The notes under the pieces: model-generated | What the model saw: the letters and a program-made list of their open reading frames with translations, nothing else | Told to the model about the DNA's origin: nothing | Database searches by the model: none | Assembly: GCA_003344405.1 (NCBI GenBank) | Contig: NOWV01000010.1 | Coordinates: 62,001-126,000, forward strand | Source of the DNA: Trichoplax sp. H2 | Taxonomy: Eukaryota | Length of the DNA stretch: 64,000 nt | Direction: 5' to 3' | Translations under genes and position numbers: made by a program | In this document: positions 5,263 to 40,682 of the stretch, one piece after another | Layout of the letters: every line of letters begins with the position of its first letter | Position numbering within the stretch: position 1 is the stretch's first letter

Positions 5263-8116
5263 TCATGTACCCTTGTAGGAACGATTAATGAAATTGTCTA
5301 TCGTTAGTTTTGTGAATAAAAATCGAAAATGAATATCAACTATAGCTGGATTACTGGAAATGTGAAAGTAGAATAATTCAACTAAAATAAGAAGACGCGA
5401 TACAATAAAATGAACGAAGGAAGTTTCAATCGAAAACATTGCTTTCATTCGAAAATACATTCTTACCTTCCTCCCTTTTTTTATGGTTGGATTTTCTCTT
5501 CATTACAAAAATAATGCCTGAAATTACGAGCATAACTAGCACGCAACTTAATCCAACGCTTATTCCAATGATAGATCCACCATCGATATTTGGCAGAGCA
5601 TTTGCAGTCGTTGATTTAGAGAAATCTGAAATTTTTAATGATATACGAGTATGAAGGCTTAAAAATTATATTTATAAAAATATTATTTAAGATCGAAGTA
5701 ATAACTCAATGCATTGAAGCGTACCGGTTGTAACCGCTAATGGATTAGTCATAGTAGGGATTGATGTTGTGGTTGAGATTCCATCGGTAAAAGGATAACT
5801 GACTACAGTCTCAGCACTAGAAGTGCTCTTTAAGGTTGTAGTCGATTCCGTTTTTGGTTCTAGCGTTGTTAGATTATTATGAATGCTTGTAGAGTTATTA
5901 CCTTGTTAAAATGTTTTAAAAATAAGTCATAGTTTCAGAGGCGATATTTTATCGATAAAAATAGCTTTAAAACATACTATTTTCAAATCTTATCGCTAAA
6001 TTGCTATAGAAATAGTTGCTAGTTTGGAGATATCTCCTAGCATTACTTGGTGTCTTATTTTCAATAGTTACGATTTCGTCTGTTCCGGGTGTTTGCGTAG
6101 TTTGCACGTAACTATCACTGGGTGTACTATCATCGCTAGAGTTGGATATAACATTATCGGTACTATCGCCAATTAAAGTCGATGAAGGTGTCGACGGCTC
6201 AGTTTTAGCTGAATTTTCACTTTGCCCAATAGAGACTGTAGCAGTTTCTTCTTCAATATCCGAAGTTGTAAAGCTATCAGTGTATAGCCACGTTGGAGAA
6301 CTAGTAGGTACTGATGATTCTACAGTATGAGTTTTCGTCGTTGAGGCAACTGTAGTAGGTATATGATTAGTTGTTGTAGTTTTGATAGGAGTTGTGATAG
6401 TTTTGATGGGAGTTGTGGTAGTTTCGATGGGAGTTGTGATGGGAGTTGTGATGGGAGTTGTGATAGTTTTGATAGGAGTTGTGATAGTTTTGATGGGAGT
6501 TGTGGTAGTTTCGATGGGAGTTGTGATGGGAGTTGTGATGGGAGTTGTGATAGTTTTGATAGGAGTTGCAGTAGTTTGGGTAGGAGTTGTGATAGTTTTG
6601 ATGGGAGTTGTGGTAGTTTTGATAGGAGTTACTGTAGTTTGGATAGGAGATGTCGAGAATGTTGTTGTACTTTTGGTGACAGTTAGCGCAATAACAGTGT
6701 CTGTTGGATTAGGACCGTAGTTTCCTATCATAAAAATGTGCAGTGATACGAAATATCAGAATTAATGTATACCCAAATATATTCCATCTTTCAACTCAAA
6801 TATTAAGGCAATATTAACTAAAATGATATTTACAATTCCGTATATGATCAGCAAGTTGTTATACCATGTACAACAACTGTAATTTTGCAGATACTTGAAA
6901 TCAATAATTTTAATTATGTACGTAATTTACAAAGGATGATGAGGACGTCAAACTAGGAAGCGTGAGATTTCATTTCATTACCGTACTCTTACCAGTTATA
7001 AACATAGTTCCTAAAGTCCCGCTATCACCAATTCGATTTCTAGCAGACAGAGAGCAGATGTATAGCGTATTCTTTCTAAGACCTTCCATCGTCAGTGATG
7101 TTTGATTTGTTTCTGTGTTAACAAGATGTTGCGAAAGACCTTGTGCCTTACATCTGATTATAAAATGTTGCCTGAAGCCGTTATCGTATCCCGGCTTCCA
7201 GGAAAAATAGACTGAGGAATTCGTAAGGTTCTCAGGCTTAAAAGAAGTAGGAGGCTCCGGTGGGCCTGAAAAAATTACATTACATTGAAGACTATCTATC
7301 GCATTGGTAAATCTACAAAGAATTTATCGTAATCTAATAGAGGTTATTGTTCTTGAAATGTAAAATTGATATCACACAGTAATTAGTTATATCACGACTG
7401 TGTTGCTACTAGTTCATAGGTGCTATTTCGCTAATCTGATTGAATTACACAAGTTAATTGTAATTGAGGGTTTAAATAGTGTGAATTTAGTACAGTTAAA
7501 ATAAATACAATAATCAATCTGCTTCGATATAGTTAATAGATGATAAGTTTTATAGGGAAAGTCGTAATTTAAAAGATTTTACATGCTGCTGTAGGAAAAA
7601 TTGTATTTTGTAACGACTCTCAATAATTACTAGAACTTTACTTTCTTTTTTGCATAAGCTCTATTTAAATTTGCTGTACTTACTCATAACAACGACTGTT
7701 GTAGTTATGACTTTTTCATGGTTTGGTTGATATGAGGCTGTCCATATATAGTTTCCGCCATCGCTGGTGACCAAATTCTTAATGGTTAATCCCAATGTTA
7801 CTTCTGTTGAAGTCTTGTTGTAGAAACTTTTCATACGATTTGATGGCTTAATTTCGCCAGTCATATATTCATTAAAAGGACCAATAATTAACATTAACCG
7901 TGGGAACGGGGACTTCTGAAGTGTCAGTGTCAGTAATTCTAAGTTTCTTCCTGAGTTATCGGTCTTTTTGGCTGTACATAATAAAATTATATCCTCATTT
8001 ATTCTTGCGTAAGTCTTGCCAGATGGCGTCGCTAAAATGGCTTCGGTTACTGGTAAGTTTAAAGCGGCGACATTAAAGAGTAGCAGCATATAGCAAAGCT
8101 TTAGCCACTTAGCCAT
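5263..8116 (-). CDS. Type I membrane protein: signal peptide, Ig domain, FN3 domain, Thr/Pro-rich mucin stalk, TM, short cytoplasmic tail (6 exons predicted)
   Basis: Exons 8116-7684 (MAKWLKLCYMLLLFNVAA signal; Ig with C..DGGNYIW), 7265-6993 (FN3: PPEPPTSF..SVYFSWKPGYDNGFRQHF..LRKNTLYICSLSARNRIGDS), 6724-6047 and 5901-5725 (S/T-rich), 5625-5467 (TM GSIIGISVGLSCVLVMLVISGIIFVM-KRK), last exon ..DNFINRSYKGT* ending 5263. All joins are phase-1 GT-AG. Confidence 0.85.
6368..6655 (-). repeat. Coding tandem repeat (21-nt TTTPIKT-type and 12-nt ITTP units) of the mucin stalk
   Basis: Repeating gggagttgtgat / gatagttttgat units; the 29-aa block TPIKTITTPITTPITTPIETTTTPIKTIT occurs twice in tandem. 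Confidence 0.95.
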
Positions 8117-10086
8117 AGGAATAAAGAGCGGCAATTGATTGCGGAGGCTAACATTGAAAAATGAAAGTTTTAATTTAAATTAATTTAATGACTGCCCTCG
8201 TGCGTTCAATATGGTTGGAAAAAGAATTAAAAGTCCTTTATTCCAAATGTCGTGAGGTACATATCAGTCAATCTGAATAAAGTATTATAACTTAAAATGA
8301 TTTGAAATAAAACGAAATTTTAGTAGGTTTTTAGTAGCTAAGTGACAAGTTGGTATACAAGGACTGTAAAATCGGTATGAAATAAATTATATTGAGCTAA
8401 AATGGCGTCTGAAACTTCTTTTAACCATCAGCATAAAGTATCGACTTCGTACGCTTAAAGGATTATTTTGCGGGGATGCAGCACAGTAACAGCTTGGTAT
8501 AATTGATACACTCGTATTATTTTTATCTTATTTACATTAGCTTCTTGATAACCAATAGAACGGATGACAGGTATTGTTTGCATAATGTATTCTTATCTGA
8601 TGACAACAATATTTGCAAAATAATTGCAACCATGACAATTGAAGTTATTTCATTTGTCATACTGAGTCCCGCTATCGCTTACAGTTTATTGGAAGCTCTT
8701 TATATGTAGATTTATAATTTCATTGTGAAATGTTTTGCGGAATAAAATTTGGCTAAGTTATCAATTAACGGGTGCAACGATTTCTTAAAAATTAATGCCT
8801 AAAATGTAATTTAAATGGGTTAAAGATGAATTTTAAATAATTATCTTTGCAAAATTCTGTTTCTTCCTTCGGTTGATTAGCTTTATATAACAAGTACTGT
8901 AAATTTAATTTTTAGGCATAAGTAGTAGTGCTTAATAATAATTATTCATGTGCAAATAAGCAATTTAATAATGTGCTTAGAGCATCGACAAAGCAACTTT
9001 TATTTTGGTATATAACAAATAGATTCACTGCTTTAATATTTTGGTGTTTAAATGTACCCGGCTTTAAAGATTTATTTTTTAAAGAGTACCGAGATAAGTC
9101 TATAAAAATCTTCTTGGATTTCATTCGAAAATTCTATCATGTCATTAAATTGCATATGTATACCTGTCTATTTTCTTCTTTCCGTTTCATTTCATAATCA
9201 CAGATAGATGCACTTGGCTAATATTATAAAATGCTTAGCTTGTATGCTAATTTACAGAATAACGTGATTATTTTTAATAATTTACTAGGCGAATAATAAC
9301 TTAAATTTACTCCGATTTGCTTCCAGAATGTTCTCATGGCTCCTTTTTTTAATTAACTTTACATCCTTACACCGCAGAAAAGCTACGGTAGTGATATCAT
9401 ACTGAAATTTTACCAAATCAGAAATTGTGATACTTTTGCTAAAATCGCTTAACAAAATAAATATTTCATAGCAAGTAATTGTCATTCTTATGATCGGAAC
9501 TATCATACTTTTAATTAATCGTTACGTATGTCTAACTGTACACGCCCAATTTTGGTTGTGCGTAAAAAGACGATTGACGGACATTTCACCATGACAAATA
9601 GTGATCTTTAATAGTACATAGCGATTATTATTCATTGTCATCTTGTCTAAAGCGATGGATGAAACTTGTAGCAAGGGAGCAGCCCTATACTACAATGAAT
9701 CATTATTATCGTGATTTATCTCATGGATAACATTTCGAAATCTAGGTCTCTAAATTACTCAATTAATTCAAGTAAGTTTTAATATATTTCGATCTAAGTC
9801 TACGATACTTACAATTGCGAAATGCTATTTGTTAGCGTACATGGAGTTCGATTCTAATTATATTTTATCGATTCTTACTACATAATTTCATATACATAGT
9901 ATTAAGATATTTCACAGTAAAAATATTTGGATCTCATATAGATAGTTCAAGCTTTATTAATAACAAGTTGTCATGCAGTGAACAGGTAAATTACGGTATG
10001 TTCTGATTATTATGGTCACCGGAATTTTATAGAAGAAAAATAGAGGTATAAAAATTGGTTGATTTTAATTGGCAATTGATAATAAT

Positions 10087-10568: not shown

Positions 10569-11787
10569 CAAATACATAAGTATATATAAGTAGATAAAAA
10601 TATACTGTATGTAATTGTAATTATGTAACAGCTTCACGTAGATGTACGTCTATAGTATACCAATTATAGAATGTTTTAAATCTTCTGAACGTAGAAAAGA
10701 GCTTGTTCTGGATTTCTTAATCATGGCAGGAGTAAGCAGGCTAACTTAGCGTTTGGCAGTCACCTCATTTTTTTATTTAACATTTTCTTAGGCCCTGTGT
10801 TAAGTTTTCTTGTTAGTGAACCGGAAATTATCAAGTTGCAGAGGCTATAAATGAATGTCGAGCAATATGAAAAAGAAATTTTTCAACAGTTACTATACTA
10901 TTGTATTGTACGTATAAGAGGATGTTCTATGAACCACCAGTGAAACGAGCTAAGCAGCTTGTAGTTTTTTGGCAAATCTTTCGAAACTGAGTGGTAAATT
11001 TGATCTAAGAGGATTGAACTCTGAATTAAACTTGTGAATAAAAAAAAATCATAAATGGATTTACAAAGGTTAAATCCGTATTTTTGCTTAAGAGACAGCA
11101 ATATAATAAAATATTCAGTTAAATCGAGTTCATATCTAATTGAGATACAATGATTCGCATTACGATAGCTTATTACGTCTGCTCTCACTGGCACTGTCAC
11201 AAAAGCTCAAGTTACTAGAGCATAAGCAGGGACTACTAAAGAGAAATTAGTAGTTCCTGGTCTAACCTTCGTTGCTCTCGGTTAAAAAAATTTATTATAA
11301 TAATTATTATTGGGATGCAAAATGCTGTGCCAATAGCAAATCAAAAAATTTGAACTCTCTACCCTTATGTTTGCATAATCGCATCAATAGTACATATGTA
11401 GTGTCTGGTCCTTCTAAAAATAATATAATGAAATAAATTAGATTTTTCTGCTACGAGAGCCAGCTTAATCAAAAGGGAACGGGTAATAAGAATTGAGTCT
11501 AAGATAGCACATCGTAACCTTAGCCCGTAGGTAGAGCTGCAGGCTACGCTCTACGTGTTTTAGTGATGATACAGTAGCAATATCAAGTTCAGCTCAATAC
11601 AGCAAAATGAAAAAAAAAGTGTTACGGTTAATAATAAAGTCTCCATGGCCTAACCATTATAATTTATATATATATTATAATTTATACTATGTTTTACTGC
11701 AATCAAGAAATTTAAATTTCAGAACATCATCATGGTGCTGAGCTGAGCGTAATTTTGTACGGTAAAATACAGTAGAGACCCCTAGAA

Positions 11788-12095
11788 TGTACTGTACTGT
11801 ACAGTACTGTACACTGTATGGTACAGCATGCATACCGAAAACATACTGTACAGCACAGTAATCACACTTGGTCCGTTGTAGAATGTGGAGTACAGTACCG
11901 TAATTATGGACATACTGTACTGTACAGTGTACAGTACAGTATGTATCGTTTATGGTGAACTGTACAGTACTGTACTGTACAGTAAAGTTACTGAATTGCT
12001 TTACTCTTTTTTTACTACAGTACAGTATGTTTTGTTACGGTACTAAAATTTCAGAAGGTTTGTACTGTACCGTAGTGTACAGTACTGTACAGTAC
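11788..12095. repeat. TACAG/CTGTA palindromic simple-repeat array upstream of SMIM7
   Basis: Dense tactgtacagta / tacagtac pentamer units. Confidence 0.9.
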
Positions 12096-20102: not shown

Positions 20103-23100
20103 ATGTCAAGGATTTTAAATATTGGCTTTGGTTTAGCCTTTATTGTAATCGTGTCCATTACAGGTTTGTTAATAATTATTATCGCTAATATGGCTGAGAT
20201 GGAATCGTAGACGTCTAGCTATTCATATTTCGGTGTGGATTTCATTTGATAAATAACCAGTTTAAACCGGCAAATGTGCAGGAGTGCAGGTGTTTTTTTT
20301 TAGCTATGACTGAACCTGCAAATGCTGAAGATATCGTCTTTTCAGTTTCTTAAAACTTACTTAATTAAAAATCCAGGCTAAAAGGCTTAGTCAACGTTCG
20401 AATATGCAACACTGGTGTTGATTAACACCGTAGCTCGGAGACGCTTATTACGACATTGAGTAATATGGTAGACGTAGTCGTTGATTAGTGGGATAAGACA
20501 TTTTGTTTTGATAGTTAATTGAACTTACGCATACTGTAAACGAATTTGCACATAATATTAGTATCAATAATAACGCCATATAGTGAAATGCAAGAAAAAG
20601 TCGTGGCTGTATTATTGACAATGAATATCGGTATACAGAATGAAACATTTTACGGGAAGTTGATCTAATTTTACTACCTATAGCTAATAACAGCCTGTAC
20701 ACGAGCCGTCCAGTAAATGAAGGATACAGCACTGTAGTAGCACTGTTCATGATTTCTGGACTTTAAACATTACAGTCTATTTATGCCTGTAGGCAAGTTA
20801 TTTTGTGCGCTTATACTCTTCGGATGATCGCCTATCGTCGTAAGCTACTAATTTTGAATCTCTGAACGCTGCACTTCTGCAAGTACGATCTTACTGTGCC
20901 GACAGATTCATGTTGATCCTTGTGCTGTACTAGTAGCTAGTTGTCAAATGACTATACCGATTAATTTTGATGATAGTTTTTCAATCTGCGGGCAAGCACT
21001 GTACCGTACCGGGGACAACGAGTGAAATACGTGGAGACGCGGAGTAGTGTTTGAGTAGATTATGTAGTTATGAATGACTGGATGAGTGGTCTGTACTGTA
21101 AGTAAGGTAGTACTGTACAGTATGTGCTCTTAATATAACTGCAAATGGAGTAGCGCCATAATTTACGTAATTTTACGTATCAAGTAAAGCACAATATTTA
21201 TCCATCCCCTACGACTTACTGCTGATAGGTTCAAGTCATTGACTACCAAAAAAGACCTTTTTCTAGCAGTCCTGGTTAATCCTGCTGTCCCACTGGTAAT
21301 TGTGGTGTAATTATTGTAAAGTAGATTCTTCTTATCCTGGACAAACTGCGAGCTATATTATACGTGTATGTTCCTTATATCAGCATTAACAGTAAATTAA
21401 TCATGAAGTTTTCTGTACTGTAGTATTCATACTAAAGTATAATGTAACGCTATCCTTCGCACAGTAGGCGACGGTGCTGCTTCTAGTTGATCCCAATATA
21501 TTTCATAACGTATGTTATATCGCACGGGGTTAGACCAGCGCTGGTGAATTGCTTTGCGTTGAATAATGTCGAAGAACGTTGATTTTCCCTTGATACTCTT
21601 TGAATTTATATGTTCTGTAGCTGCATCATATCTTCAATTAACCTAAATATAAATTTGCAGAACTGTATTAGTCCTTTTTTGCGCTTGGATGCAGCAGATA
21701 ATATTTCCGAAGTAAATAATACGCGATCTGGAAAATCAGTTATGATCTTACTGACAACTAATATCCCTTTTGGTTTTATTATAATTATTCATCAGGACAT
21801 TGTACAAGAGGTCTCTCTTTGTATTGTTCTTATCGCCTGCCGATGGGCTTTGATGAGGATGACTTTTACTCTATTAGATGCTGGACTAACAATGATAATA
21901 CAAAGTTTACTTGGTCTAGAGTTTCATCTCGTGTATCGCCTTTTCATGTCAGCACGGATCAGTATCAGATACAGAATAAGTCCGGTGAATCAACATTAAT
22001 CTTGCCGTGGAATTCTCTAAACGATTTTTATCGTTACGCTGGTGTATATGAATGCCAAGCAACAAGCACAGCCAGTAATTCTCCCCAAAGGAAGACTTTA
22101 TGGGTTGGAGTTACTCATTCTGCATGTAAGGGTATATTTAATTTCGACCTTTTAATTAATGCATTAACGATTTCAGTTGTGATATATTTAGATCTTAGAA
22201 GCCGTTAACACCTCTGTTTTTAATTATTTATTTAGCTCCTGTACAGCCATCAATTATTTCACAAGTTGGCTATGTTCGCGATACCTTAGTGTTAACCACG
22301 TTATCGAATAATGTCGTAACTTGTAATTATATATGGTACCACAACGGCTCACGTTATACCCGATGTGACAATGCTTGCAACTGTAGTTTTGATAGCTTGA
22401 GATTACAAGATGCCGGAGTTTATGAAGTGATTTATCCGGCATCTGACAAATCTAATATTACTGGTGCTTTTATGACATTAACTGTTTTAGGTAAGTTACG
22501 CGTACAGTACATCGGAAATATATACCTTGGAATCTCTGCTCTTCTGGTATTAGTTTATTTTATTCTTTACAGAGAAAAAATGTAGCCAAAATCAAAACTG
22601 CCTCAACGGAGCCATCTGCATGACAGACAATAGTTGCGGTTGCCTTCCAGGCTTCAATGGTACTTCGTGCCAGACAGGTTAACTGTAAATCTACAAATGT
22701 CATTCATTCTGTTATCACATGGTTAAATTGCAACTAGATACGCTTAAAGCTTATCATTAAAGGACAATCTCTATTATTATTAGCTTGCAGTCTTCCGTTT
22801 CGTTGTGGGCCTGCATGCCAATTTGCTTGTCAGCCAGAAAGTGTGTACTGCAGTTCCGATATGTATGGGTGTATGTGTCCATCTGGAGTAACTGGCATTA
22901 GCTGTAAAACTGGTAGGTTTGAGGTTTTTTGAAACTGCCTGTAGAGAAACAGGCGGTATTAAATAAATTATGTAATACTCATTTCCTGTCGTAAGAATGA
23001 AGGTTATATTTTAATATTAGATTCGTGTCCTGCTGACAACTATGGACCAAATTGTCAACTGAAATGTAATGGGTGTAATAATCATGGAAGCTGTCAGTCA

Positions 23101-26100
23101 AAGACGGGTTGTTTGTGCCAGTCTGGATACTCTGGAATCTACTGTGAAGAAGGTTATTATTATTTTCTGTGTTAATAAAAAAATTACTGCTGCGAAGACT
23201 GTTTCTTCGATTTCTAAATCCTAATTAATTTAAACAGTTGCAGGCGGTTCCGTAGTTGTTATAATTGGTGTCGTTGTCGCAATTATTGCTGCTGTTAGTT
23301 TAGGAGTGATTGCTTACATTTGGTACAGGTATCAAACGTAGTAGATTACAATACTGAAATTGTTTATCAACTGTTTCCAGAAACCAAATTAATGCTAATT
23401 TATTTTGCAGCCGTCGCCGCGCTAGAGCTTTAGCTAATATCAAATCACCAGATCCTGTCGTCATTGTTGATGCATCTGGTGATAATCCATCGTCCTTAGA
23501 TACTAATTTAATCCGGTCACGATTAGGACAGTATAAATACGTAGTATCCAAAGGTAACTGTTACACGGAGAAAAGTTGCATAATTTGGTCGATACGGCTT
23601 ACAGTAATACCTCTATGTCGCTTGTACATTTTAGCGCAAAAGGCATCATTGGTTCAAAATATTAAGATCCCGACTAAACCTATAATTGTTAAGGACCTGC
23701 TTGATCGTATTAACGCTTTGAAGGAAGATTCGGCTCTTGCTTTAAAGGAATTTGAGGTGAGTAAATTTGGAACGGTTGCTTTGATATAAAGTGGCATGAC
23801 TGCATTCATTCTCCTTGCTCCTATAGTCCATCCCTCCTTGTAAAGAGACCCATGCTATTGCAGACATGAAAGGGAACGCGAAAAAGAATCGTTCTCAAAG
23901 TGTTATTAGTTGTACGTTTATTAATTATATAATATACAGTAAACGTCCAATTTTTTATTTACGATATCGGTGATCCTATTCATCAGATTAAATGATTTAT
24001 TTCCTAGATGATCATTCAATCGTCACAATCGGCGATGGAGGAGTCAATTCGTATATTAATGCTTCTCATGTTCATGTTAGTAAAGATTCCTTATAATGAT
24101 TCATAGTAGGGAACAGAAAGCTTTTTCTAATGCTTTACTGATTTAACAGGGATACATGAAACCTAATGGTTACATAGTAACTCAAGGTAATTGCAATTTA
24201 TCCTGGCCGCTAAAATTAAATTGCATATATGGCTTGAAGATAATTTCGAGTTATTAATCAGTTAATCGTAAAGATGTGTAGATTGTTAGATAATATTTCC
24301 CAGGATTAGCTAAATTTAGAACTGGCTATGAAATTAGGTCCTCTAAAGTCAACATGCAATGATTTCTGGACCATGGTTTGGGAAAAGGAAACCTGTGCAA
24401 TAGTGATGCTCACAGAGTTATCTGAGAAGGACGAGGTTAATTATTCAAAAGGATTTGATTCTTAGGTTTATAAATTTAGGCCAAATTTGCCTTACGTGTA
24501 CCTGTTAAATTTTTTCAGCAATTATGTTACAAGTACTGGCCAGAAGAAAAGGATACTTATGGTAATGTATGTGTCACTCTAGAGAACGTAAGCAAGAGGA
24601 GCTGTTATACAGTCAGAACTTTTCATTTGCAAAAGGTAGTGTATAACCTTTAATACTGTTACGTGACATAAACTTTCTCTAAATTAGTATTTGCTCCAAA
24701 ACTATGCAGGTTGGAGAAGTAGAAAAGCAAGAAGTGAAACAGTTTCACTTCACTGCTTGGCCCCACGGTGGTATACCTGAATCCAGTACAGGGCTTTTTA
24801 GATTTAGGTCACTGGTACATGCTTTTAACCCCTCCGATGCTGGTCCTATCGTTATTCATAGCAGGTATGGCATATTACCTATACGCCTTTTGATCTTATC
24901 TTAAGAATGGTGATTTTCATTTATAGTGAAGGAAGTAGTCGTTGTGCTATGTTTGTTGCACTCGATATCAATCTTGACCGCGCCCGCAAGCAAGGTGATA
25001 TTGATGTTTTAGAAAACGTTGGTTTGATGTCGCATCATCGAAAAAACATTTTAGTCCGTGTTGTAAGTGACGTTGTTCTTCATAGATAGCTTTGTCTGAA
25101 CACCACCATGATCATTTGTATTTAAGGCCAGTAAGAATTTTTGTTTCTGTATTGATCTTTCATTTCAGAATGAATACTTATTTGTATACGAAGCAATACT
25201 TGATGCTCTAATACGAGGCAATACGCAAATGTCGCTTAAGAATTTGCAAACCTTCGTAAGCCGGGCAGATACATCCGAATCGGGCTCCAAAAACAATCCT
25301 TATACCATCATGTTTCAGGTAACATACTAAATGAATTAGATTAGTATCGAGATTGCTATTAGTATATGCGAAATCAGCCGATGAATATTTAAGCTACGTT
25401 TCGTTTTGGTAAAGTGCTTACGATGTCAGGAGGGAGAACATGATGATTTCGCTGGAGCTTCGTTATCTGCAAATGAAAACAAAAATCGTTTTCCTGATAT
25501 CTTAGCTAGTAAAGTCCTTAAGTCTAATATTCTAAAATAGGCAGTTTTCATTTATATTTATCGTTGTATGAAAGTGTATCAGCGTTAATAATTATATATT
25601 TTATGACTCAGGGGATAAATATAGGGTTAAACTTTCAAGCAGTGACAGCTCAGACTATATAAATGCTGTATTTATTGACGTAAGTTTTGTGATGATGCTG
25701 TACTATGCAACATTTATTATGCTGCTAGTTGATGTGATGTAATATTAGCAAAACACTTATTACAGAGTTACTTAAGAGCAAGAGAATTTATTGTCACCCA
25801 ATATCCACTACCGAATACTATAAATGATTTTTGGAAATTAATCATGGAACAGAACGTTGCGTGTGTTGTTACCTTGGGATCATTTAGTAATCATCCGGTA
25901 AACTTATTTGATTTATGTTTTATTGAAAATACATGTAGATAGCTAATCATTTTTATAACATTGGTGCTTCTATAGCCTTATTGGTGGCCTTCTAATAAGA
26001 AGCACGACGTATACGATAACATTAAGGTTGAGATTTTGGAAGTAGCGACGGTAGATGACCTAACTATAAGACAATTAAAGGCAACAGAGAAGGTTTAGTA

Positions 26101-29497: not shown

Positions 29498-32400
29498 ATG
29501 GCTTCCAGCTGGCACCACAGTAAGAATACAGAAATTGGGATTATAGAGGAGTTACCAAAACGAACATTTCGAAAGATTTCTGGCGACAGGTCGAGCAATT
29601 TTGAAACATCTGGAATTGTTGTTGATTTTAGAAAATTGCTTGTGAGTGAAAGAAGGATCATTGACTCGGTAAGAGAGGATTTGAGATCAAACTATCAAAA
29701 GACTGGATTTAATGCATCCGTGTATATATATATATATGTCTGCATTTATGCTGCAAATATTGGTAATTGTGACGGCTTGCATGTTGTTATTGACAGTCAA
29801 AAAGCAATGAATTTTATTGTAATGGTAGGAGGTGAAAATTAAAATTATAGTTACAGAGGCAATGAAGAAAATTTGAAGTTGTTACTGCCCAATTAATATG
29901 CATTAATTGCTAGGGTTTAGTTGGTAGAGAACTCGCTACCGCAGATAAATAAATATAAACTTATTATTGTGCACGTATGCTTTAATTAAGTACCGAAGAT
30001 ATACGTTCAACTATGCTGTTAATTTATATTAAAGGAAAATGAATATATTAACTAGCTGCTTGGTGTTATGCTTACTACAGTATATATTATTACATTAATA
30101 CGTATTTGAACGTGATGGACGTCGAACTTTCACATTTCAATCAATCGGATGGATGTTGACTTTTGGTGCTTGATTTATTATAAAGGCGTATTAATGATTT
30201 CAGATTTCAAATCGGGATCTCTTACATGCCATCGTTGGACTTTACGATATATGCCTGCCGGATGTCACTCCAGAGGTTATATACGATTGCGTGTGCGCAA
30301 GATTTTCCAAAACGGTTATTCTTTTGCGGGACATAAATGGTAAGAAATGTGATTTAGTAACATTTAATATGTTTAGATATCTATGTAATAGTATTATTTT
30401 TATATGATCAGTGTATTCGTAATTATTCATTGAAGTATTCTATACAAAAATCATTTTGTATAAATTTGGCATTACAAATTATATAGTAATACCAGTAATA
30501 CACTGGTGGAATACCGCTAGTAATCGGCAATCGCTTACCGAGATATTGAAAGAAAAGTTATGACGCTTTTGAGGCTAAAGGATACTTATATCGTACTTAC
30601 GCTTTGATTGACATTTCTGTGTTACTTTCGAGTTTAAGTTATATATTATTATTGCATCAAATAGGTATATTAGATACTTCTGCAATATTCTGATTCGATA
30701 CAGTGTCATGTAGCTAGTAATAATAGTTATGACGTTGTGTTCTTTAGAACTTCATGATTTCAATACAGTAGGTGGGGTAGCGAAGTTGGAGTTTGTAACA
30801 TTGAAAAATCGGGTAGTCGATTTGGTATTGATTACAAAAGAATTTGATGAATTCTAACTGTTTAAATAATGTTCCGAGCTATAGCAGTTCGATACGGCTC
30901 AGTCGGTTTAACAAAGCCTGTTCTGCTAACTGTAATTAGCATATAGATTACATAAATAATTTTATAATAGCAGATATTATTACTGATTCTCTAACGATTA
31001 AGATACTACGTAATAGTACAAGCTCTGACAGACAAGAAAAATCTTCTTACAACCACAGATCTCAGAAAAGAGGGACTAAGAACTATAATAATAGAATAAC
31101 GTTGCTGCTTAAATACGTTATTCAACTTGCTTATAATATAAAAGTTATAAACAACATCTCTAAACACTTACAGAACTTAGCTTGAGAGCAAAATTCTGTG
31201 ATTATTGTTATATTCTACGACGCAGAAATCAATATAGTTAAATAATAATTGCTATAAACATTGCTTGTACGGTTTACACCTATTATTGTTAACTGTCTAA
31301 TAAATGCGTCTCACAATAACTATCTTAGTCAAATGGTATTTTCTAAAAGGCTTTTATTGCAAGGTTTTAGGAATAGTGGAGCAATAATTAATTACTACAA
31401 GAACCTAGTCCAAATCTAAACTATTCTGAGCTCAAAGCGAAGTGAAGTCTCTTCTCTTCCGTGAGCTCATCTCTGCGGTTATTATAAACATTTCGTTAAA
31501 TCCATTTATGACAAATTGATTAATTTACAATCAGACATGAGTCATCAAACAAAATACTTTTCTGTAATAGTAAGTCATTATTTTCCACAATCTGAATCAT
31601 TCTACTTAAGATGTCACTACTCTCCTATTAACGTCTAGGCCCTTTCTCCGCATAGCATCTTAACAACTATAGTGTTTCTAGCCATATAAATCTTGTATCA
31701 TAATTAGTCAACTGGCTACTATTAGTCATCAACAATTTCTAATATAGTAGTTAGCAATCGTTTAATATTAGCTTCGCGATGATATCTATTCAAAGTAACC
31801 TAGCTATATCAAATATAGCTATCCGTATAATCGAATATGGCTGCATCACTACACTGTCTTAGATTTTATGATTATTTTTAAGTTATATCTAATTTACTTG
31901 TACAGTACATAGTACGTTGACAACAATAGCTTATTTAACAGTATCACTACAGTCGGTTGCAAATGTCTTGGATGTTTATCCAGTACTTTAAAATTTAGAA
32001 GATGCAATCATTATTACGACTGCACAATGAAATTTTTTGTACAGTATATAGCCTGCGGAGAAGAGTGGGACCTTTGTCTGTATTGGTTAAATACTAGTAG
32101 ATTGGTGTGGGAGACTTTAATTACTTTATTCATTTCATGCATGAATACATGCTGTACGACAATATTTTCTTGTTATATAATTTAAAATCTCTATGATAGG
32201 TTTATCACGAAATGAGATTATTAGCATGTATAAGTAGCTTCTATAGTATAATCTGATTACAATATTAACTGATTCTGTTGGACTATTGAACAATAGTAAT
32301 ACATCTTCACTTAAGTTTAAAATTTATAGTATTTAAGTTTATAGATTAAATATATTCGCCTAAATGTAATCGCAGATATATATTATCACTTATTAGTGAT

Positions 32401-35400
32401 TCATCGGTCATTATCTTATTTTCGAGAATGCTATCGCGTACCCTAGTTTTTAGAATGTGTTCTTAGCAGCATTAGCTTAGTTCAGTTCAATAACAATAAA
32501 GATTTAGTCCAATATTCTAGCTTTATCGGATTCGTCTGAAAATTTCTGGCTAATCTTCCTTGTTACAAAGTAGAAGTATTTCGAAACTGTAACAGGATTG
32601 CAAAATTCCCATTCTTAGAGCCGTCTCATTTTTTTATACTAGATATCAAAGGATCAATGATAGTAAATGAGCAAAAGGAGCAAAATGACTGTGATGTGGA
32701 TGATGGAGGCTCTACCAAGTCTGTTGATCAAGGTGAAATATGTTGTATCTATCTGTAATTGGCATGCATTGTGTTCATATTGTGCATGGGAAATCTCATT
32801 TTATGCATTGTGTACAAATAGTTTTGTGTCGCTAGAGGTGGCTATGTAGTAGATATCAAGTTGGTTATCTTATATAATAACTAGTTGCTTTGCATTCCTT
32901 ATACCGTATCCAGCAGTTTGTGGAGTTGCAAACCCTGAAACGCCGATAATGAAATTAAGAATATGATAAAACACGCATTTACAGATTAAGACTCTAGTAA
33001 ATCCTTACTTGAAAATTCTTTTAAAATTTAGTATTTAGAGGCGAACAGAGAAGTATCTTTACGGGAATTTATAGCGATTCAGAAGAAAGCGTATTGGCTT
33101 CGTCGGCGGATAGGTCTGTTGATTGGTATTCCTGTATAAAAGAACATCTACATCATCAATTACATATTCGTCAACTTTAGTAGTTAAATGCTAAATGTCG
33201 GAAGAGGCTTCAGCCTAATGGAGATTACGAAAGATTAAATACAATGGATAATCACTTTTCTATATTAAAGCTTAAATCTGTGTGATTATAATTCCTTAAG
33301 CATTTATTTAAGGATATAAAGCTAGAGTTTGCAAATAAGTCTTAATGATGTGCGTACGCATAATTTTATACATACCGTACAGTGTACGAGTTCACTTGCG
33401 GAAATGATATCAGATATTTTTTGGGCTTATAGCAGTGAAAGCGATAACTCTGAAGAGGAGAATTATAGTGCTGGAATTGATGACTTTATAGAGGCCGCCC
33501 GTGAACGTCGTAGAATGATTGCGGATTCTACAGGTAGTAATAGATAGGCTTAAATTAGTACCGATAACAGTTGGCTTACCTGAATGAAAAGTAGGATAAT
33601 TTAATGATTGTCTGTTAATATTATAAGGATTGGTAGATCTCGTAGTGCGGTAGACGAGAGATGTGTAGTTTTGTTAGCGATTGATCCTTAGTATTAGAGT
33701 CGCATTGTAGGCTAATGGCAGCGAGGACAAGCATTTCAGCAGGCTCATAGTAGCTTGGTTTGTCGTTACAAATTTCGATTTACAACAGTGTCAAATTGGT
33801 CCTGTCTTGGTGATTAATTTAATTTGAACTGGTTGTAGGCCTGTACTAATTCTATATAATCAATCTGATTGAAAACATTGATAAATTTGTTGAGTAGATG
33901 TGGATATAAAATGGAATGATTGATTAATTTATGCCATTAGAAATTGATAGACAAGATGTAGGAGTTGTCGGTCTCACTGAAAACTTGACATCATATTGTA
34001 CTTGGTACGACGGATTCTATGTTAATAGGGGGAGTATTGTCTACGAAGTTGATTGGTCCTGAATGCTTGTTAGTAGGATGTGCTACATTTGAAAGGGCTT
34101 ACAGGTATGGTAACAATTGAACGATTTGTACTGTGCAATATTGCTTCATAGCTGTTGAGGTAATCTGCTCAAAGCTACTAGTTGATTAATTATTGCGGCA
34201 TACGCGGACAATTTGCACTAACAATTTGTGTATTAAGACATTTATCTGGAGATTATTTATTCGAGAGCACCTAATTTAAAAAACGGAGGCATTAGTGATA
34301 AAGTAAATCGAAAGTAAGAACCTTATTCATTTCTTTACAGTTTAAATTAATAACATGAAGTCTTGTAATACTGCACGTTTTGTATATTGTATTTTTAGGA
34401 GTGTAATGCTAATTGCGATAGTTACTTTATTTACAGTTGACGGCTTGTGAGAGGGAAATTTCAGTAAAAATCTATAACTTGCAAATGGTTGGAAGTATCT
34501 TATTTAACCATTGGTCTATTGATACGCTAGTTTTACTTATAATTAGCTTGATTTTATATCGCTTCGCTAATAAAAGTATTATATTAAACATTTCAACTTT
34601 TTCGTAATATTTATGACAATAAGCAATGTTTAATGCCATAGTGTGATAAATATGCTCCTGTTATATATACAGTATAATTATTATTTACAACAAGTACTAA
34701 TCACGAAACGATTTCGAGTAAAATTGAATTTAATTACTGATTTTGGTTAACCAAATTTCTACAACGGGAAATTATCGTTTCAAGAATAAGTACCATTCTA
34801 ACTCTATTGATATAGCTTCTTATATATCTAGTTTGTTTACGACACCCAAAATAATTGAGAAGAAATAGCTGAATCAATCATTTACCCATTAGACTTAGTA
34901 TTAAAATGAATGAATCTCTACGATTACTATAGCTTCCTACGAAACTGAGATTGGTAAACTTATGGTATTGGCAACATGACAATACTTGTACTAGCTGTCA
35001 TTAATAATTTATAAATGACTCAAAACTGTTGACGAGGGCATGCATTATGTTATTATACACCGCTCGTGCATGATGTTGTGGATTGCATTTGGTTACGTGA
35101 TAATATAATATTTGATAAGATTAAAGTACAAAATAGCCTGCGATTAGTACCGTTCACAGCAACCTGGACCAGTTTAAATTTCAAAATTTTAGCGTAAATG
35201 CACTTCTCATAGCTTTGCAAGGTAATGCTGTTCTTTGGGTCATGAAATATACTTGAAATTGTTACAAAGGAATGCTAAATTATCAAGCGTGTTAATGATG
35301 TTATTACCTACGAGCTTAGTTTCATTTTTTAATGTAGACGAGGAAATGAGAGAGTTGGACAGATTAGTTTGCTGGCTGTGAGAAATAGATATAGGCGATG

Positions 35401-38400
35401 CCATATTGGAAAGTATCTGCTGGAGGTAATTTTTATATGCAATTCTTTACGCCAGCATTGTCATGTTATATGCGAGCGAGATGTATATGCAACTTTTTTA
35501 TTGCCTTGAGATCGTTTGTGAAAGAGAGTAAGTATGACCATAATAGAGTGTAGGTCAAGTCAAATGGCTGAATAGAATTAGAAATGTTGCTAGCTATATT
35601 TAATTTTTATTCGATTTAAAATATAAGAGTTACTTGGATGTAAGTTTTATTTAATATCCCAGTTGAACTGTCGATGAAGATGTACATGCGTGATATTGCA
35701 GTAGAGTATTTGCTTACCAATAGAATATTCCAATGAGTTTACGATTAAGTTTTCATTTGACTGTCTTGAGGAATTATTATTGCAAAGTAAATTAATTTTT
35801 TATGTTATATGATTATTTTGTGTATTTTTCTTGTAATTTATCGGTGAAATTGTTTTAATTGATAGATAATTATGAATGTGAATATAATGGGGGAATACGA
35901 TGCGATCGCAGCGTACGTAGATGACGGTGCCAAAGATTTCTTTTTAAATAATGGATTCACCGATGATGTCTTGCTAAACAGCCGGTACAAGTATGTGCGA
36001 ATGCAGTGCAGTTTAAGAGATCCATATGTATAATACTTTGAGACGTTTAATTATTTAAGACCTTTAGTATGTAGAATCATCAAGCTCGATATTTTTCAAA
36101 CTATACATAATATAATTAATGAATTATTGGCCAACCTCTTTGCTCGTAGTTGTTTAGTTTTTGGAAAAGGTTGCTTTTTACAGGTTAAGGCTTATGAGTA
36201 TATGTCCATGAGGCTTTATTTTGAGTGCAGTAGTAACATAATTAATTACTGTACTTATATACTGTAAGTGAAGTCTCTTGATCAAGTGGATACAAAATTA
36301 ACTCAGTGTTCAAGTGGTGGTAGTTGTGTTAAAAATTTAATCCTTTTGGAAGTACTGTACTTTATGAAAAATGTACATTGTAGTAAAGTTAGATTTATAG
36401 ATTTCTATTGACATGGACTTCTTTTGAAATTTTGGTTTGTTACCGTCTGTATCACTAAAGGACAGTCAATTTATTGTGATAGCATACTGTACTTTTAAAT
36501 TAAATTATTATTATAACTCTTTCTTTACCTTATTAGGAAGTATATCAATCACTGGATTAACAGTACATTGATGTGCTACTTGCCAATGGTTTCAGGTAGA
36601 GGAATAGCTAGATTGACAGTAAACAGCAGTGTAGGCGTAAAAATTTACATTGAACAGCAACATAGGTTTTAAAAATGACATCAATACGAAAGAATTAATT
36701 ACTTTAAAGTAGAACAATGTAATGCATACCCTGTATTGTCGCAACGTTCATTGTAGGTGTTTTACCGTTCGATAACAATTTGTATTTGACTGAACGCTTT
36801 AGCTGTTAATATAAACAACGCCGGTAGTCTTGATGAAATTGTTGAAGAATGTGAAAAATGGTGAGTTAGAAAAAGGATTATAGTATTGATAGAACGTGTT
36901 GATTTAGTGTTGAAATTGTAGTTGTAATTCGATGTAATACTGGATATATAAAAAACGGGTATACCGATTTTAGGAGACAGAAAAGTCTCGAGGCTTATCA
37001 AATGCAAGCTGGCTGCATGTTCAAGATGGTACATGAAAACCATCAGCTTAGGAAAACGGTCGATAAATTGAAGATTCTTTCTCTGTGTTTATTGTATATA
37101 TAAATTCTTGTAATCAAATGCATCATAATAATAATAATAATAATAATAATGTGCCATTTGTCTTGGAAATAACCGTTATGCTATGAAATAGGTAAAAGAG
37201 CAGACTGAGTTGATCAAAGATTTGGAAGATCGCTTAAGTAGAAAACAGCAGCAATTGGAATATATTGGTATTACTTACTATAGACTAGTACTGCATCAAT
37301 ATGGAATAGTGGAGCAGGAATTAACTTCAATGTTGTGATTTGAAATGTAGAAAAAGAATTTACTAGGTATCGTCAGAAAGTTGCAGTAGGTAAATGCACA
37401 TGTTTGGTTTGGTAGTTATCATTGCTCGTAATACGTTTTATTTGAATTCGGTTGGATGTGTCAATAGAAAGTTGACATGGTGGTAAGAAATGAAATTTAT
37501 TATGATGTATTTCTGTTGCCAGATTCTAGAGAGTTGTCAAGAATGACTGAAGATGTAGAAAGGCTACATTTGAGTTATAATAGATCACAAAGTATGACTG
37601 ATTAGTTTTGGGTGTTGATGGAAATATTAATATAATAATAGGTAATTATAGAAATTTGTAGCTGTCCATTGAAGTAAGGAAATTTTTTGTTGATATGGTT
37701 TCGCAGATTTTGTTGGGAAGTTTGGTTGTAGAGATGAAATTCTGAAAGAATTACGGTATCCAGTTGAGGAATTTGTAAAGTGTATGGAACAATGTATGCA
37801 ATCTGGTAGCAGCGTTGAAGTACAAGAAATCTATCAGGTTAAATATGGATTATTATTTTTCTATTAAACGACGAGATTTCCATCGCCTCTTTTATATAGA
37901 GAATATGTGATTGTTGTTTTCTACTACGGTGGGGCAGGAAATAGACTATAAATGGTAGTTGTTATTATTATTATGATTATTTAGTCCTAGAAGATGTCAA
38001 CTGCTAGTATTATTATATTATTATTATTTAAGAATAGCATTGACATAGTAGGGTATGTGCTTGGTTTATAGGTTTCTGAGAATACTAAATCAAAAATTCA
38101 AAATAATTTTGATTCTTGCGTGAACTCTTTTGGAGATAATGCTTCTGTGCTAACGTTGTATTATTGTGGAGGTAAAAGCGGCTTAAAGGGAATATTAGAA
38201 AATGGTTTTACTACAGAAGGTAAAAGCTATGTAGTAGGACACGATAAGACAATCGTGCATACCGTTAGTGTAGTTAGCTTAAGGTAATAATTGATGCTGT
38301 GCTTTTAAAACAATTAGGTTGTCCAGTACGGTACAATAGAGAATTATGAGCTAACTTAGTTAGTCCTAGTTGATGTCATTGCTACCCAATTGTATTTTAT

Positions 38401-39749
38401 TTATTTACTTACAATACTGTAATCAAAGATTGTCAACGTGTAGCAATAGGATTAACTGATTTTATTATGGAGTATTTATTGATGGATATAATCAGTTGTA
38501 CTTGATACAAATGCGGTAGTGCAGTACTGGAGAGTATGATCGTAGTAGTAGTTTATTATGATTTCATTTGGAGTGCAATATTCGTTTAGGTGAGGGATAA
38601 GGAATAGCGTAAAAAGTGGGATATTGACAGGGTGATTTCTACTTGTAGTAGTGTGTATTTTTAGAGTATTGATGATGATAATATGATAATAATTATAATA
38701 ATTTATTGCTGTGATTCATTCATTCATTCAATTATTGTTATGGACGTATGGTAAAAATACGAACGTGAAAGAATTTGTAAGAGATATTTTTGGGCAAGGG
38801 TTGTATTTTTCAAAATACGCAACACAAGCGATTTATTTCAGCAAGGTAATGAAGTCAATGTACTGTACTTTTTGTTTATTTATGATGTGGAAGTGTTGCA
38901 GTAGGTAGGTTTGTAATGGATAAGTAGGAAAGTTAACGTCAGTATAAATTACGTAAGATATAGTAATAATAATATAGGAGTAGTAGTACAGTACAGTAGA
39001 GAAATGATAATGCTGTCTATCATTGTTATGATGATTAGTGAAACGTATACAGTCGATGTACTGTACAGTATTTCATAATATGCATAATAGAGCAATAAAG
39101 AGAATAATTTATGTTGCGAATTTTTATTGTAGCCAGATGAGGTTTTGATTGCAAGAGTGGCTCTTGGTCGAGTAGAGTCGGTTGTGAGAAGTGATGAAAA
39201 CTGGTACAATTGTGCTTGTGTTTTTGTAGCATTCTATGTTGATTGATGATTGTGTTTGTTCATTCGACGTTGTATCTTTGCTTGTGTTAGTTGCACACCA
39301 CCGGAAGGTTTTGATTCTATCTTGGTAAGGAGGAGCTAGTGTGTATGATTATAATTCATTAGTGATGTTAAGTTTCGTGTCTTTTGTGTTGGTATGGGTA
39401 GAAAATATATTTATTTATGAATTAAGAAAGTACTAATATAGACTTTGCTGTATGGCTAGTGATAATTGATGTTATGGCTTGTGTATGTGTCAATGATGTG
39501 AATTGATATTTTATGGCAGACTAAAGGAAGACATTCTATAACTTATCAAAGAGATCCACTGTATAAGCATGAATATATTCTATTTCGTCCTGAGCAGGTA
39601 CTATCATACTCAATCACATCAAGGTAGTCGATTGCGTAGATACTGTATAATGACAGGAGATTCACTAAGTAGGTTGATTGGAATTTGGTCTATAGGCGAT
39701 GCCTATCTGTGCTGTGAAGTACGTGATTAAAACAAGAAGCGGCCCTTAG
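29498..39749 (+). CDS. Multidomain protein: MATH-like N-terminus (tentative), acidic linker, GCN5/PCAF-like GNAT domain, coiled coil, PARP-type ADP-ribosyltransferase domain
   Basis: Spliced: ..CATFERAYR|RGNERVGQISLLAVRNRYRRCHIGKYLLE|IIMN..YDAIAAYVDDGAKDFFLNNGFTDDVLLNSRYK|KYINHWINSTLMCYLP (GNAT); coiled-coil exons ~36800-37570; ART: LTLYYCGG..GILENGF, DIFGQGLYFSKYATQAIYFS, VLIARVALG, PPEGFDSI, KHEYILFRPEQ|AMPICAVKY..* (TAG 39747-39749). Phases are consistent from ~34078 to the end; exon joins from 30340 to 34000 are uncertain. Confidence 0.75.
30909..31953 (+). repeat. Dispersed repeat copy B (intronic), with ~560 bp extra sequence (31293-31856) relative to copy A
   Basis: By-eye alignment to the reverse complement of 10087-10568. 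Confidence 0.8.
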
Positions 39750-40455
39750 AGTATGCTACTACACTAGCTGAACATGGTAGAAAGATTTGGAAAAGAGAGA
39801 TTTTCGATTTAGTGAAGATTGGGAAATTAGTATGTGTATGTCTAGTTTTATGCTATTGAAATTATAGTGTCAATTGTCCTTACTGATAGGTGATTGATAT
39901 CATTGGAGGTAGATATTACGGTTAGTGTGAGTTGTCGCGCATCACGATTTTGGAGAATTTAAAGTGTCAATTAATAAATTAACGAAATCAACAGAATCCT
40001 GTACAGTGGAGTTGTTATGAAGTAAGAGTACTAAGTGTGAAATATGTATTTTTTGTATTAAGCATACGTACCGCTGCCATGTGTAGAAATATGTAGTGGA
40101 AAAAATCAGTATGGGTAAAATGTGGTAGCGAGGTGAAATTGATATACAGTACTGTATTGTAGGATTATAAGGGGAAGGGAACTGTAGAGTGAATCCCTCC
40201 TGTAGATATTAACTTTATAATCTTCTTACCTATGGAAAATTTGGTAATTTGCGATACTCTGGAAACGTAATTGTTACTTTTTAATTAGTGCACAGTATGG
40301 TTCTATTTTATAAGTATCGGATACTTTTTGAGTACTGCAAAGCGGATATAATGTACAGTAGGTCTTTTCTTTTTGAAAGCACATGGCAGCCGCCGCGTGT
40401 TGCGTGTTTTTTACGCGTCGTCAACGCATGTTTTCATAAGCAATACTGCTTTGAA

Positions 40456-40622
40456 GTACAGTACAGTGTACAGTACAGTGTACAGTACACGAGGACTTGT
40501 AAAGTACTGTACAGTACAGTATAACAATGTTACAGTACGGTACAGAGCAGCTCTGTATTGGCAGGTACTGTACTGTACTGTACTGTACGAATACTTACCA
40601 AGTTACAGTACTTAGTACTGTA
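40456..40622. repeat. TACAG/CTGTA array upstream of U6
   Basis: gtacagtacagtgtacagtacagtgtacag.. and gtactgtactgtactgtactgtac. Confidence 0.9.
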
Positions 40623-40682
40623 AAAAATGCAAATAAGCACATATTAAAGCGCCTATAATAGAAGTAAAAGATTCTTAAGTTA

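Follow-up and report, generated by a model that had tools for sequence, protein, structure and literature searches.

We analysed a stretch of 64,000 nucleotides from Trichoplax sp. H2 (contig NOWV01000010.1, positions 62,001 to 126,000 of the forward strand), which is called the window here and in which all coordinates are given. The region from 29498 to 39749 on the plus strand is one protein-coding gene of 21 exons. In its product, an acetyltransferase (GNAT) fold of the GCN5/PCAF type, interrupted by an acidic disordered insert, is followed by a helix of about 84 residues and a domain of the PARP fold. Few protein-modifying enzymes have been studied as much as GCN5-type acetyltransferases and PARPs, whose folds are joined here in one protein. 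The gene belongs to an old and uncharacterised eukaryotic family whose architecture is already present in public protein sets and is not peculiar to Trichoplax. New are the combination of the two folds in such a family and a variant of the PARP catalytic triad. As neither domain is canonical, the function is not yet readable from the domains.

Gene structure and public protein models

Between 29.5 and 39.8 kb, the plus strand contains many short open frames. A preliminary description of the locus, made by a model from the letters alone, had read such frames as phase-consistent exons that join a GCN5-like domain, through a coiled coil, to a PARP catalytic domain. All peptide motifs quoted in it were found on the plus strand, in open frames and where it had placed them. 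To establish the exon chain, the two public Trichoplax proteins matching this region were placed on the window by tblastn, after which every junction was tested with a script for GT or GC donors and AG acceptors. This resulted in a single chain of 21 exons (Table 1), in which 20 of 20 introns are GT-AG and the GNAT domain is indeed connected to the PARP-type fold via a long helix. The coding sequence starts with the ATG at 29498, ends with the stop codon at 39749, which are also the limits given in the preliminary description, and is open over its 1815 nucleotides, giving a product of 604 residues plus the stop. The GNAT and PARP-type domains listed in the preliminary description were thus both recovered, with a long helix in the place of its coiled coil; what it had missed is that the N-terminal exons form the first half of the GCN5 fold. 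The window is AT-rich, with a GC fraction of about 0.29-0.37, and in intron 11 the unit ATA is repeated 8.7 times as a microsatellite (37125-37150).

Both public Trichoplax models are incomplete. The H2 protein P0001 ("hypothetical protein TrispH2_001370", 523 residues), which was 100% identical over a single-exon query, lacks the C-terminus, and the Trichoplax adhaerens protein P0002 ("expressed hypothetical protein", 454 residues, with a precomputed PARP annotation) lacks the N-terminus. Our chain reproduces 507 of the 523 residues of P0001 and 444 of the 454 residues of P0002. The H2 model passes the GT donor at 38220, runs into intron 16 and reaches a stop at 38284; it is without the PARP core, and a Pfam scan of P0001 gave no PARP match. 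The T. adhaerens model begins within intron 4 of the window, and the first half of the acetyltransferase fold is absent from it. Both models overlap over the GNAT part, the helix and the first PARP exon, and P0002 alone joins both domains in one model. For the annotation of Trichoplax, these results support a full-length protein of 604-614 residues against two incomplete public models.

The two possible lengths depend on exon 11. In both public models the donor at 37028 is used, which leaves a gap of 10 residues in the helix compared to all 21 non-Trichoplax sequences. A GT at 37058 lengthens the exon by exactly 10 residues and closes this gap, and in BLASTP the longer exon aligned to the coral protein P0004 without gaps (16/26 identical, E 4e-9). 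Judging from these alignments, we think that the exon ending at 37058 is the true form, or at least an isoform. The protein would accordingly comprise about 604 residues, or 614 with the longer exon 11.

When relatives were searched with P0002, 30 of the 42 non-Trichoplax matches bore both GNAT and PARP Pfam domains. Nine had only PARP flagged, eight of which nonetheless cover 85-96% of the query; GNAT alone was flagged in two, and one was without any flag. Full-length relatives matched with E values down to 3.5e-74, far beyond what chance would give. Several relatives are encoded on short contigs that are nearly filled by coding sequence and leave no room for introns: P0003 (596 residues on 2262 nucleotides), P0028 (637 on 2508), P0019 (424 on 1706) and P0058 (588 on 1905). 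Both Pfam domains are present in P0003, P0019 and P0058. Since these contigs barely exceed the coding length, while the Trichoplax gene has 21 exons, they are most simply explained as spliced transcripts. Together with P0002, the relatives provide strong indirect evidence that the Trichoplax gene probably gives a single transcript as well.

Domain folds and conserved residues

The N-terminal part of the protein was studied with an AlphaFold2 model of P0001, which was built with 61 sequences and has a mean predicted local distance difference test score (pLDDT) of 78.7. Strands and helices at residues 16-118 are followed by a low-confidence acidic stretch (about 119-174), the remaining GNAT fold (175-304) and a single helix (319-402). 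The acidic disordered insert of about 55 residues lies between the two halves of the fold. In a first model, built for P0002, the GNAT part was poorly folded (pLDDT 35-60) because the N-terminal half of the fold is missing from that protein; the P0001 model cured this.

When the P0001 model was compared with solved structures by Foldseek, the top hits among the matches listed were all GCN5/PCAF structures, with E values from 4.9e-8 to 6e-6 and template modelling (TM) scores to the target of 0.72-0.84 (for the best rows, E 4.9e-8 and TM 0.82-0.84). Naa50 came next (9e-5, TM 0.50). The GCN5/PCAF alignments are 252-330 columns long and therefore cover both sides of the insert. A family profile of 23 members, searched against PDB sequences, ranked the same group for the GNAT part, with Tetrahymena GCN5 at 5e-7, KAT2A at 1e-6, PCAF at 4e-6 and yeast Gcn5 at 7.5e-4. 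When the profile was made from PARP-less members only, GCN5 again ranked first (3.4e-6), in two stretches; the first of these, which is weak alone, aligned the exon 2 block with residues 14-60 of Tetrahymena GCN5. As the alignments span the insert and the N-terminal block corresponds to GCN5 14-60, we assign the N-terminal exons to the first half of this GCN5-type fold. The name "glucosamine-phosphate N-acetyltransferase", given to some UniRef entries, was rejected as a family assignment since GNA1 structures matched only at 0.008 and GCN5 at 3.4e-6.

On P0002, three GNAT families scored slightly below their Pfam cut-offs. Of ten single-exon pieces scanned, one had weak GNAT matches (E 0.0057), one a PARP match (E 0.11), two had chance-level matches to unrelated families and six had none, the pieces being too short. 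No match to the bromodomain or to PCAF_N was found by Pfam on P0001 or P0002.

Residues of the GNAT half were counted over 61 sequences in the register of a HMMER alignment to GCN5. In motif A, the Arg is kept in 58/61 sequences, the first Gly in 51/61 and the second Gly in 61/61; both Trichoplax proteins have a His at the first Gly (RRCHIG). In GCN5, a Glu acts as general base. Only two of 60 family sequences have Glu at this position, where Gln (23) and His (23) prevail, and Trichoplax has Gln. A different Glu, located one strand before beta4 (GIE), is present in 60/60 sequences and could serve as an alternative base. Many GNATs function without a Glu at the GCN5 position. The two halves of the fold are the best conserved parts of the protein, with mean pairwise identities of 0.52 and 0.50.

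The family shares with GCN5/PCAF (KAT2A/KAT2B) the motif A pattern RxxGxG (in most members), motif B (ADN.A..FF...GF), the GCN5-specific C-terminal strand (...TLM.CY) and the N-terminal helices, which align, and GCN5/PCAF is its best solved match for this part by profile as well as by fold. It differs in the replacement of the catalytic Glu by Gln or His, in the insert that splits the fold and, in Trichoplax, in a motif A whose first Gly is His. Moreover, a bromodomain and PCAF_N are missing, and the fold is followed by the long helix and the PARP-like domain.

Within the otherwise disordered insert, the motif F..(V/I)(F/Y)SD.E is nearly invariant over the 61 sequences, and S147 and D148 are conserved in at least 90% of them. 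This motif may be a docking or phosphorylation site.

The helix of about 84 residues is a single, long helix in both AlphaFold2 models (P0001 and P0002), and it probably forms a coiled-coil stalk. Its mean pairwise identity is 0.36, and the helix exons between both domains are conserved. A complex prediction with two copies of P0002 165-454 scored 0.09 (mark 0.32), which speaks neither for nor against pairing of the helices; dimerisation through the predicted helix would be plausible.

The C-terminal domain has a PARP fold and is nearest to PARP4, tankyrase and ZAP. Pfam matched PARP (PF00644) on P0002 with E 6.6e-10 and 39.3 bits (cut-off 26.7), and the PARP part of the AlphaFold2 model of P0002 has a pLDDT of 84-95. 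In Foldseek, tankyrase, PARP4 and ZAP matched this model at about 2e-9 to 3e-9 and, with PARP1-3 included, the range extended to 3e-8, all with probability 1.00; the ZAP match had an E value of 3.4e-9 and a TM score of 0.72. With the family profile, the best PDB sequences for this domain were PARP4 (6e-11), tankyrase (2e-8) and ZAP (2e-8), followed by PARP3, PARP10 and PARP1.

PARPs carry a triad of the type H-Y-(E/I/L/Y), with Glu as the third residue in PARP1-5. The His contacts the adenosine ribose of NAD+ and a Ser anchors the nicotinamide, and both side chains matter for NAD+ binding. We placed the family in register by HMMER alignments to tankyrase and PARP4 and counted over 61 aligned sequences, with non-gap residues as denominators. 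At the His position, Cys is found in 45 and Ser in 2 of 51 sequences, Ala, Gly, Thr and Met in one each, and His in none; in the tankyrase alignment, the family's LYyCG lies opposite MLFHG. Pigoraptor and Cyanophora have Gly at this position and one further member Ala. The residue after the Cys is Gly in 50/54 sequences. The Tyr of the triad is kept in 44/47 and the Glu in 44/48 (KHEY in Trichoplax). The residue that aligns with the nicotinamide-binding Ser of tankyrase (SSKSNQY) and PARP4 is Ala in 45/48, and the equivalent of the stacking Tyr is Phe in 41/47. The mean pairwise identity of the domain (0.41) is above that of the helix. By these counts the PARP-like pocket is conserved yet non-canonical, and its Cys-Tyr-Glu arrangement provides a natural experiment on a PARP fold without the NAD-binding His.

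Compared to PARP4 (vault PARP) and tankyrase, the best solved matches of the domain, the family retains the G.G.YFS motif and the Tyr of the triad, as well as a Glu within (Q/H)EY and the final strand Q..P...(I/L).Y. It differs from them in the three substitutions His to Cys, Ser to Ala and Tyr to Phe, and the BRCT, VIT, vWA, ankyrin and SAM domains were not flagged by Pfam in the Trichoplax proteins.

Table 1. Exons of the Trichoplax gene in window coordinates, with the parts of the protein that they encode
Exon	Position	Strand	Encoded part
1	29498..29668	+	ATG start; N-terminal acetyltransferase strands (16-42 in the P0001 model, pLDDT >90 from about residue 20)
2	30204..30339	+	Conserved block (LLHAIVGLYDICLPDVTPEVIY...): helices alpha1-alpha2 and next GCN5-type strand
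3	32643..32732	+	Beginning of the acidic insert that splits the fold; pLDDT <50 at residues 122-133
4	33032..33113	+	Insert with near-invariant F..(V/I)(F/Y)SD.E motif (P0001 about 140-150)
5	33433..33533	+	Ser/Asp/Glu run and conserved helix FIEAARERRR leading back into the fold (helix 175-191)
6	34029..34104	+	Strand with the invariant Glu: IGPE here, GIE in relatives
7	35338..35425	+	Strand beta4, where Gln takes the place of the catalytic Glu of GCN5; motif A is RRCHIG, RxxGxG in relatives; contains VGQISLLAV..RRCHIG
8	35866..35990	+	Motif B region (AYVDDGAKDFFLNNGF); contains AYVDDGAKDFFLNNGFT of the preliminary description
9	36537..36595	+	Final strand of the fold, WINSTLMCYLP, aligning with GCN5 ...GGTLMECY; contains YINHWINSTLMC of the preliminary description
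10	36803..36860	+	Linker and beginning of the long helix
11	36974..37058	+	Long helix; end at 37028 in the public models
12	37192..37267	+	Long helix
13	37351..37389	+	Long helix
14	37523..37591	+	End of the helix and low-confidence linker (pLDDT <50 at 401-417)
15	37707..37837	+	Helices opening the PARP-like domain
16	38072..38219	+	PARP-like strand LYYCGG, with Cys in place of the PARP His
17	38772..38845	+	FGQGLYFS with the triad Tyr; Ala for the nicotinamide Ser, Phe for the stacking Tyr
18	39133..39203	+	PARP-like strands, LIARVALG
19	39291..39324	+	GFDSI motif
20	39520..39597	+	KHEYILF with the conserved Glu
21	39696..39749	+	Last strand and stop codon

Distribution of the family and literature

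A HMMER search against 1.84 billion representatives returned 220 clusters at E values up to 0.001. Taxon names were seen for the 42 matches to P0002 and for 30 further of the 220 clusters, and all named members are labelled uncharacterised. They include stony corals (Cnidaria); many molluscs, the brachiopod Lingula, flukes and tapeworms (Lophotrochozoa); hemichordates, starfish, sea urchins and a crinoid (Ambulacraria); amphioxus and tunicates among the other chordates; lampreys, sharks and a chimaera, bowfin, coelacanth, a caecilian, salamanders and a frog among the vertebrates; a spider, horseshoe crabs and a tick (chelicerates); the sponge Sycon (Porifera); and the non-animals Pigoraptor and Cyanophora. 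In addition, one Atlas cluster is labelled mostly Rotifera. The records thus span sponge, placozoan, cnidarian, lophotrochozoan, deuterostome, holozoan-protist and glaucophyte lineages. The same full architecture is found in corals, molluscs, the brachiopod, hemichordates, echinoderms, amphioxus, tunicates, sharks, coelacanth and amphibians.

The preliminary description had proposed to search for GNAT-PARP proteins across eukaryotes, and the architecture proved to be widespread. Pigoraptor (P0087) and Cyanophora (P0066) have it too, from which it follows that the fusion is older than animals, if these records are not contaminants. Neither mammals, birds and reptiles nor insects and nematodes are among the names seen, and a further profile search gave no new taxa. 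We put forward the hypothesis that the gene was lost in amniotes, insects and nematodes, which may explain why the family was overlooked.

Several lineages retain only the GNAT part and the helix. The bowfin, lamprey, spider, horseshoe-crab and tick models stop 19-113 residues past the helix match, which is too short for a PARP domain, and the sponge and flatworm matches are confined to the GNAT-helix part. The amphioxus protein P0084 (1199 residues, named TNKS2) combines a PARP-like C-terminus related to the family with a reverse-transcriptase domain, and its gene model is probably chimeric.

The preliminary description knew of no characterised animal PARP with this architecture, and none surfaced in our literature searches either: the full-text searches yielded no paper that describes the GNAT-PARP family. 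Two surveys of the PARP family (PMC2964712 and PMC4245714) use neither "acetyltransferase" nor "GNAT" in their main text; their supplements may list the protein. In the searched text of a 2026 preprint on fungal PARPs, there is likewise no acetyltransferase or GNAT, the sole "GNAT" string being part of Gnathostomata, and in that of a re-annotation of human PARP domains (PMC10450202), an acetyltransferase is mentioned only for an expression tag. The main text of PMC4245714 describes PARP4 homologues as duplicated in frog, sea urchin and Trichoplax. These three groups all hold the GNAT-PARP family, the nearest solved relative of which is PARP4, and as far as that text goes, the "duplicate" may be the GNAT-PARP protein.

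The shark orthologue takes its name from zebrafish si:dkeyp-50b9.1. In a preprint (bioRxiv 10.1101/650218), si:dkeyp-50b9.1 appears in a male-group gene list beside sycp3, hormad1 and dmc1, and with a single exception the genes in this list were also up-regulated in testis compared to ovary. Via this zebrafish namesake, a putative orthologue, the list hints at a role in germ-line chromatin, possibly lost in amniotes.

Possible functions and other features of the window

The assignments to GCN5 and PARP in the preliminary description stood up to the checks by profile search and AlphaFold that it had suggested: both folds are supported, the former by profile matches and TM scores of up to 0.84, the latter by a Pfam score above its cut-off and by the tankyrase, PARP4 and ZAP structures. 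Its functional proposal, a dual writer or metabolite-sensing scaffold, exceeds this evidence. The dual writer in particular is unproven, as the PARP His (0/51), the nicotinamide Ser (Ala in 45/48) and the GCN5 Glu (2/60) are replaced.

We favour, with a probability of roughly one half, an acyltransferase that depends on acetyl-CoA and carries a divergent PARP-like module with a ligand-binding or regulatory role. Given that the family preserves motif A, the GNAT half would bind acetyl-CoA; it would transfer an acyl group without the general base of GCN5. The PARP-like half would most likely serve the acetyltransferase in ligand binding, regulation or targeting and would not be a standard NAD+-consuming PARP, because its pocket (Cys, Gly, Tyr, Ala, Phe, Glu) is constrained and both polar side chains that anchor NAD+ are lost. 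The GNAT fold and the helix would constitute the functional core, because several lineages retain only those.

A number of points weigh against this view. The conservation of the Glu and the other pocket residues fits active catalysis as well as a binding module. Given the missing GCN5 Glu, the GNAT half could also not be an enzyme, and the His in motif A of Trichoplax makes acetyl-CoA binding appear less certain there than in the relatives. The single transcript in Trichoplax is a probable one, deduced from gene models and relatives. Some of the PARP-less forms, moreover, may be truncated models or isoforms. Pfam misses the PARP domain in P0024 and P0064 though both clearly align over it, so that an absent Pfam match alone is weak evidence.

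The conserved pocket might instead indicate a true dual enzyme, in which the GNAT domain would acetylate a substrate and the PARP-like domain, with its unusual Cys-Tyr-Glu triad (Gly or Ala for the Cys in protists), would function as an active mono-ADP-ribosyltransferase. One protein would then write two marks, or couple the use of acetyl-CoA and NAD+. We regard this as possible, if somewhat unlikely. The retained Glu, Tyr and Gly after the Cys agree with it, and a Cys fixed in 45/51 sequences points to a working pocket rather than to decay. PARP4, the nearest solved relative by sequence, is an active enzyme, and the domain is better conserved than the helix. However, His is found in none of the sequences and the nicotinamide-anchoring Ser is almost always Ala, the PARP-like domain is missing from lineages that retain the rest of the protein, and the general base of GCN5 is absent.

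A related and rather doubtful proposal is that the family represents an unrecognised pre-metazoan PARP clade with a pocket that was remodelled and not lost (His to Cys/Gly/Ala, Ser to Ala, Tyr to Phe, Glu kept), and that acts together with the GCN5-type acyltransferase to couple two central metabolites. With a small residue at the His position, the pocket could accommodate a phosphate attached to the adenosine ribose, in which case the ligand or substrate of the domain could be NADP+, CoA, acetyl-CoA or an ADP-ribose derivative instead of NAD+. If this were true, the protein could acylate an ADP-ribose-type ligand, or a dinucleotide could gate acetylation.

That both folds are non-catalytic and form a scaffold or reader is, in our estimation, quite unlikely. 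It would resemble the pseudo-PARP domains of ZAP/PARP13 and TASOR, which likewise have a PARP fold without the NAD-binding His; the triad of ZAP is Y-Y-V, and TASOR is without a triad. The canonical catalytic residues are gone from both domains of our protein, motif A is degenerate in Trichoplax, and the inactive PARP-like domain of ZAP is among the best matches by sequence and by fold. In contrast to ZAP and TASOR, the Glu and the remaining pocket are strongly conserved in the family, unlike a decaying site, and the partner domains differ. Motif A is, moreover, intact in most members, the invariant Glu before beta4 is a possible alternative base, and the lack of Glu at the GCN5 position does not preclude activity in other GNATs.

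An artefact, in which an adjacent GNAT gene and PARP gene were misjoined via phase-compatible exons, would account for the H2 model that ends before the PARP core and lacks a PARP match, but is very improbable, since that model owes its stop to read-through into intron 16, the two domains are joined in the T. adhaerens model, the relatives with both domains come from many phyla and include intron-free transcript-like contigs, and the linking helix exons are conserved.

The window contains 20 N characters. Outside the gene, other features were noticed in it. On the minus strand, a long open frame at 5967-8179 encodes Thr/Pro-rich tandem units (TTTPIKTI...) and is mucin-like; adjoining frames resemble fibronectin-III or immunoglobulin-type exons, suggesting that this region is probably a cell-surface protein gene. 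On the plus strand, several frames of 128-148 residues with immunoglobulin-like motifs (GVYECQA, DAGVYEV) lie at 21604-23789, probably a further multi-exon gene for a putative surface receptor. Just downstream of the GNAT-PARP gene, at 40352-40650, the DNA is of low complexity and rich in GTACAGTACAGT units (Tandem Repeats Finder row 40456-40489). This repeat yields YSTVQ-type frames on both strands, and as a similar frame is found at 11687-12034, it may be a dispersed simple repeat.

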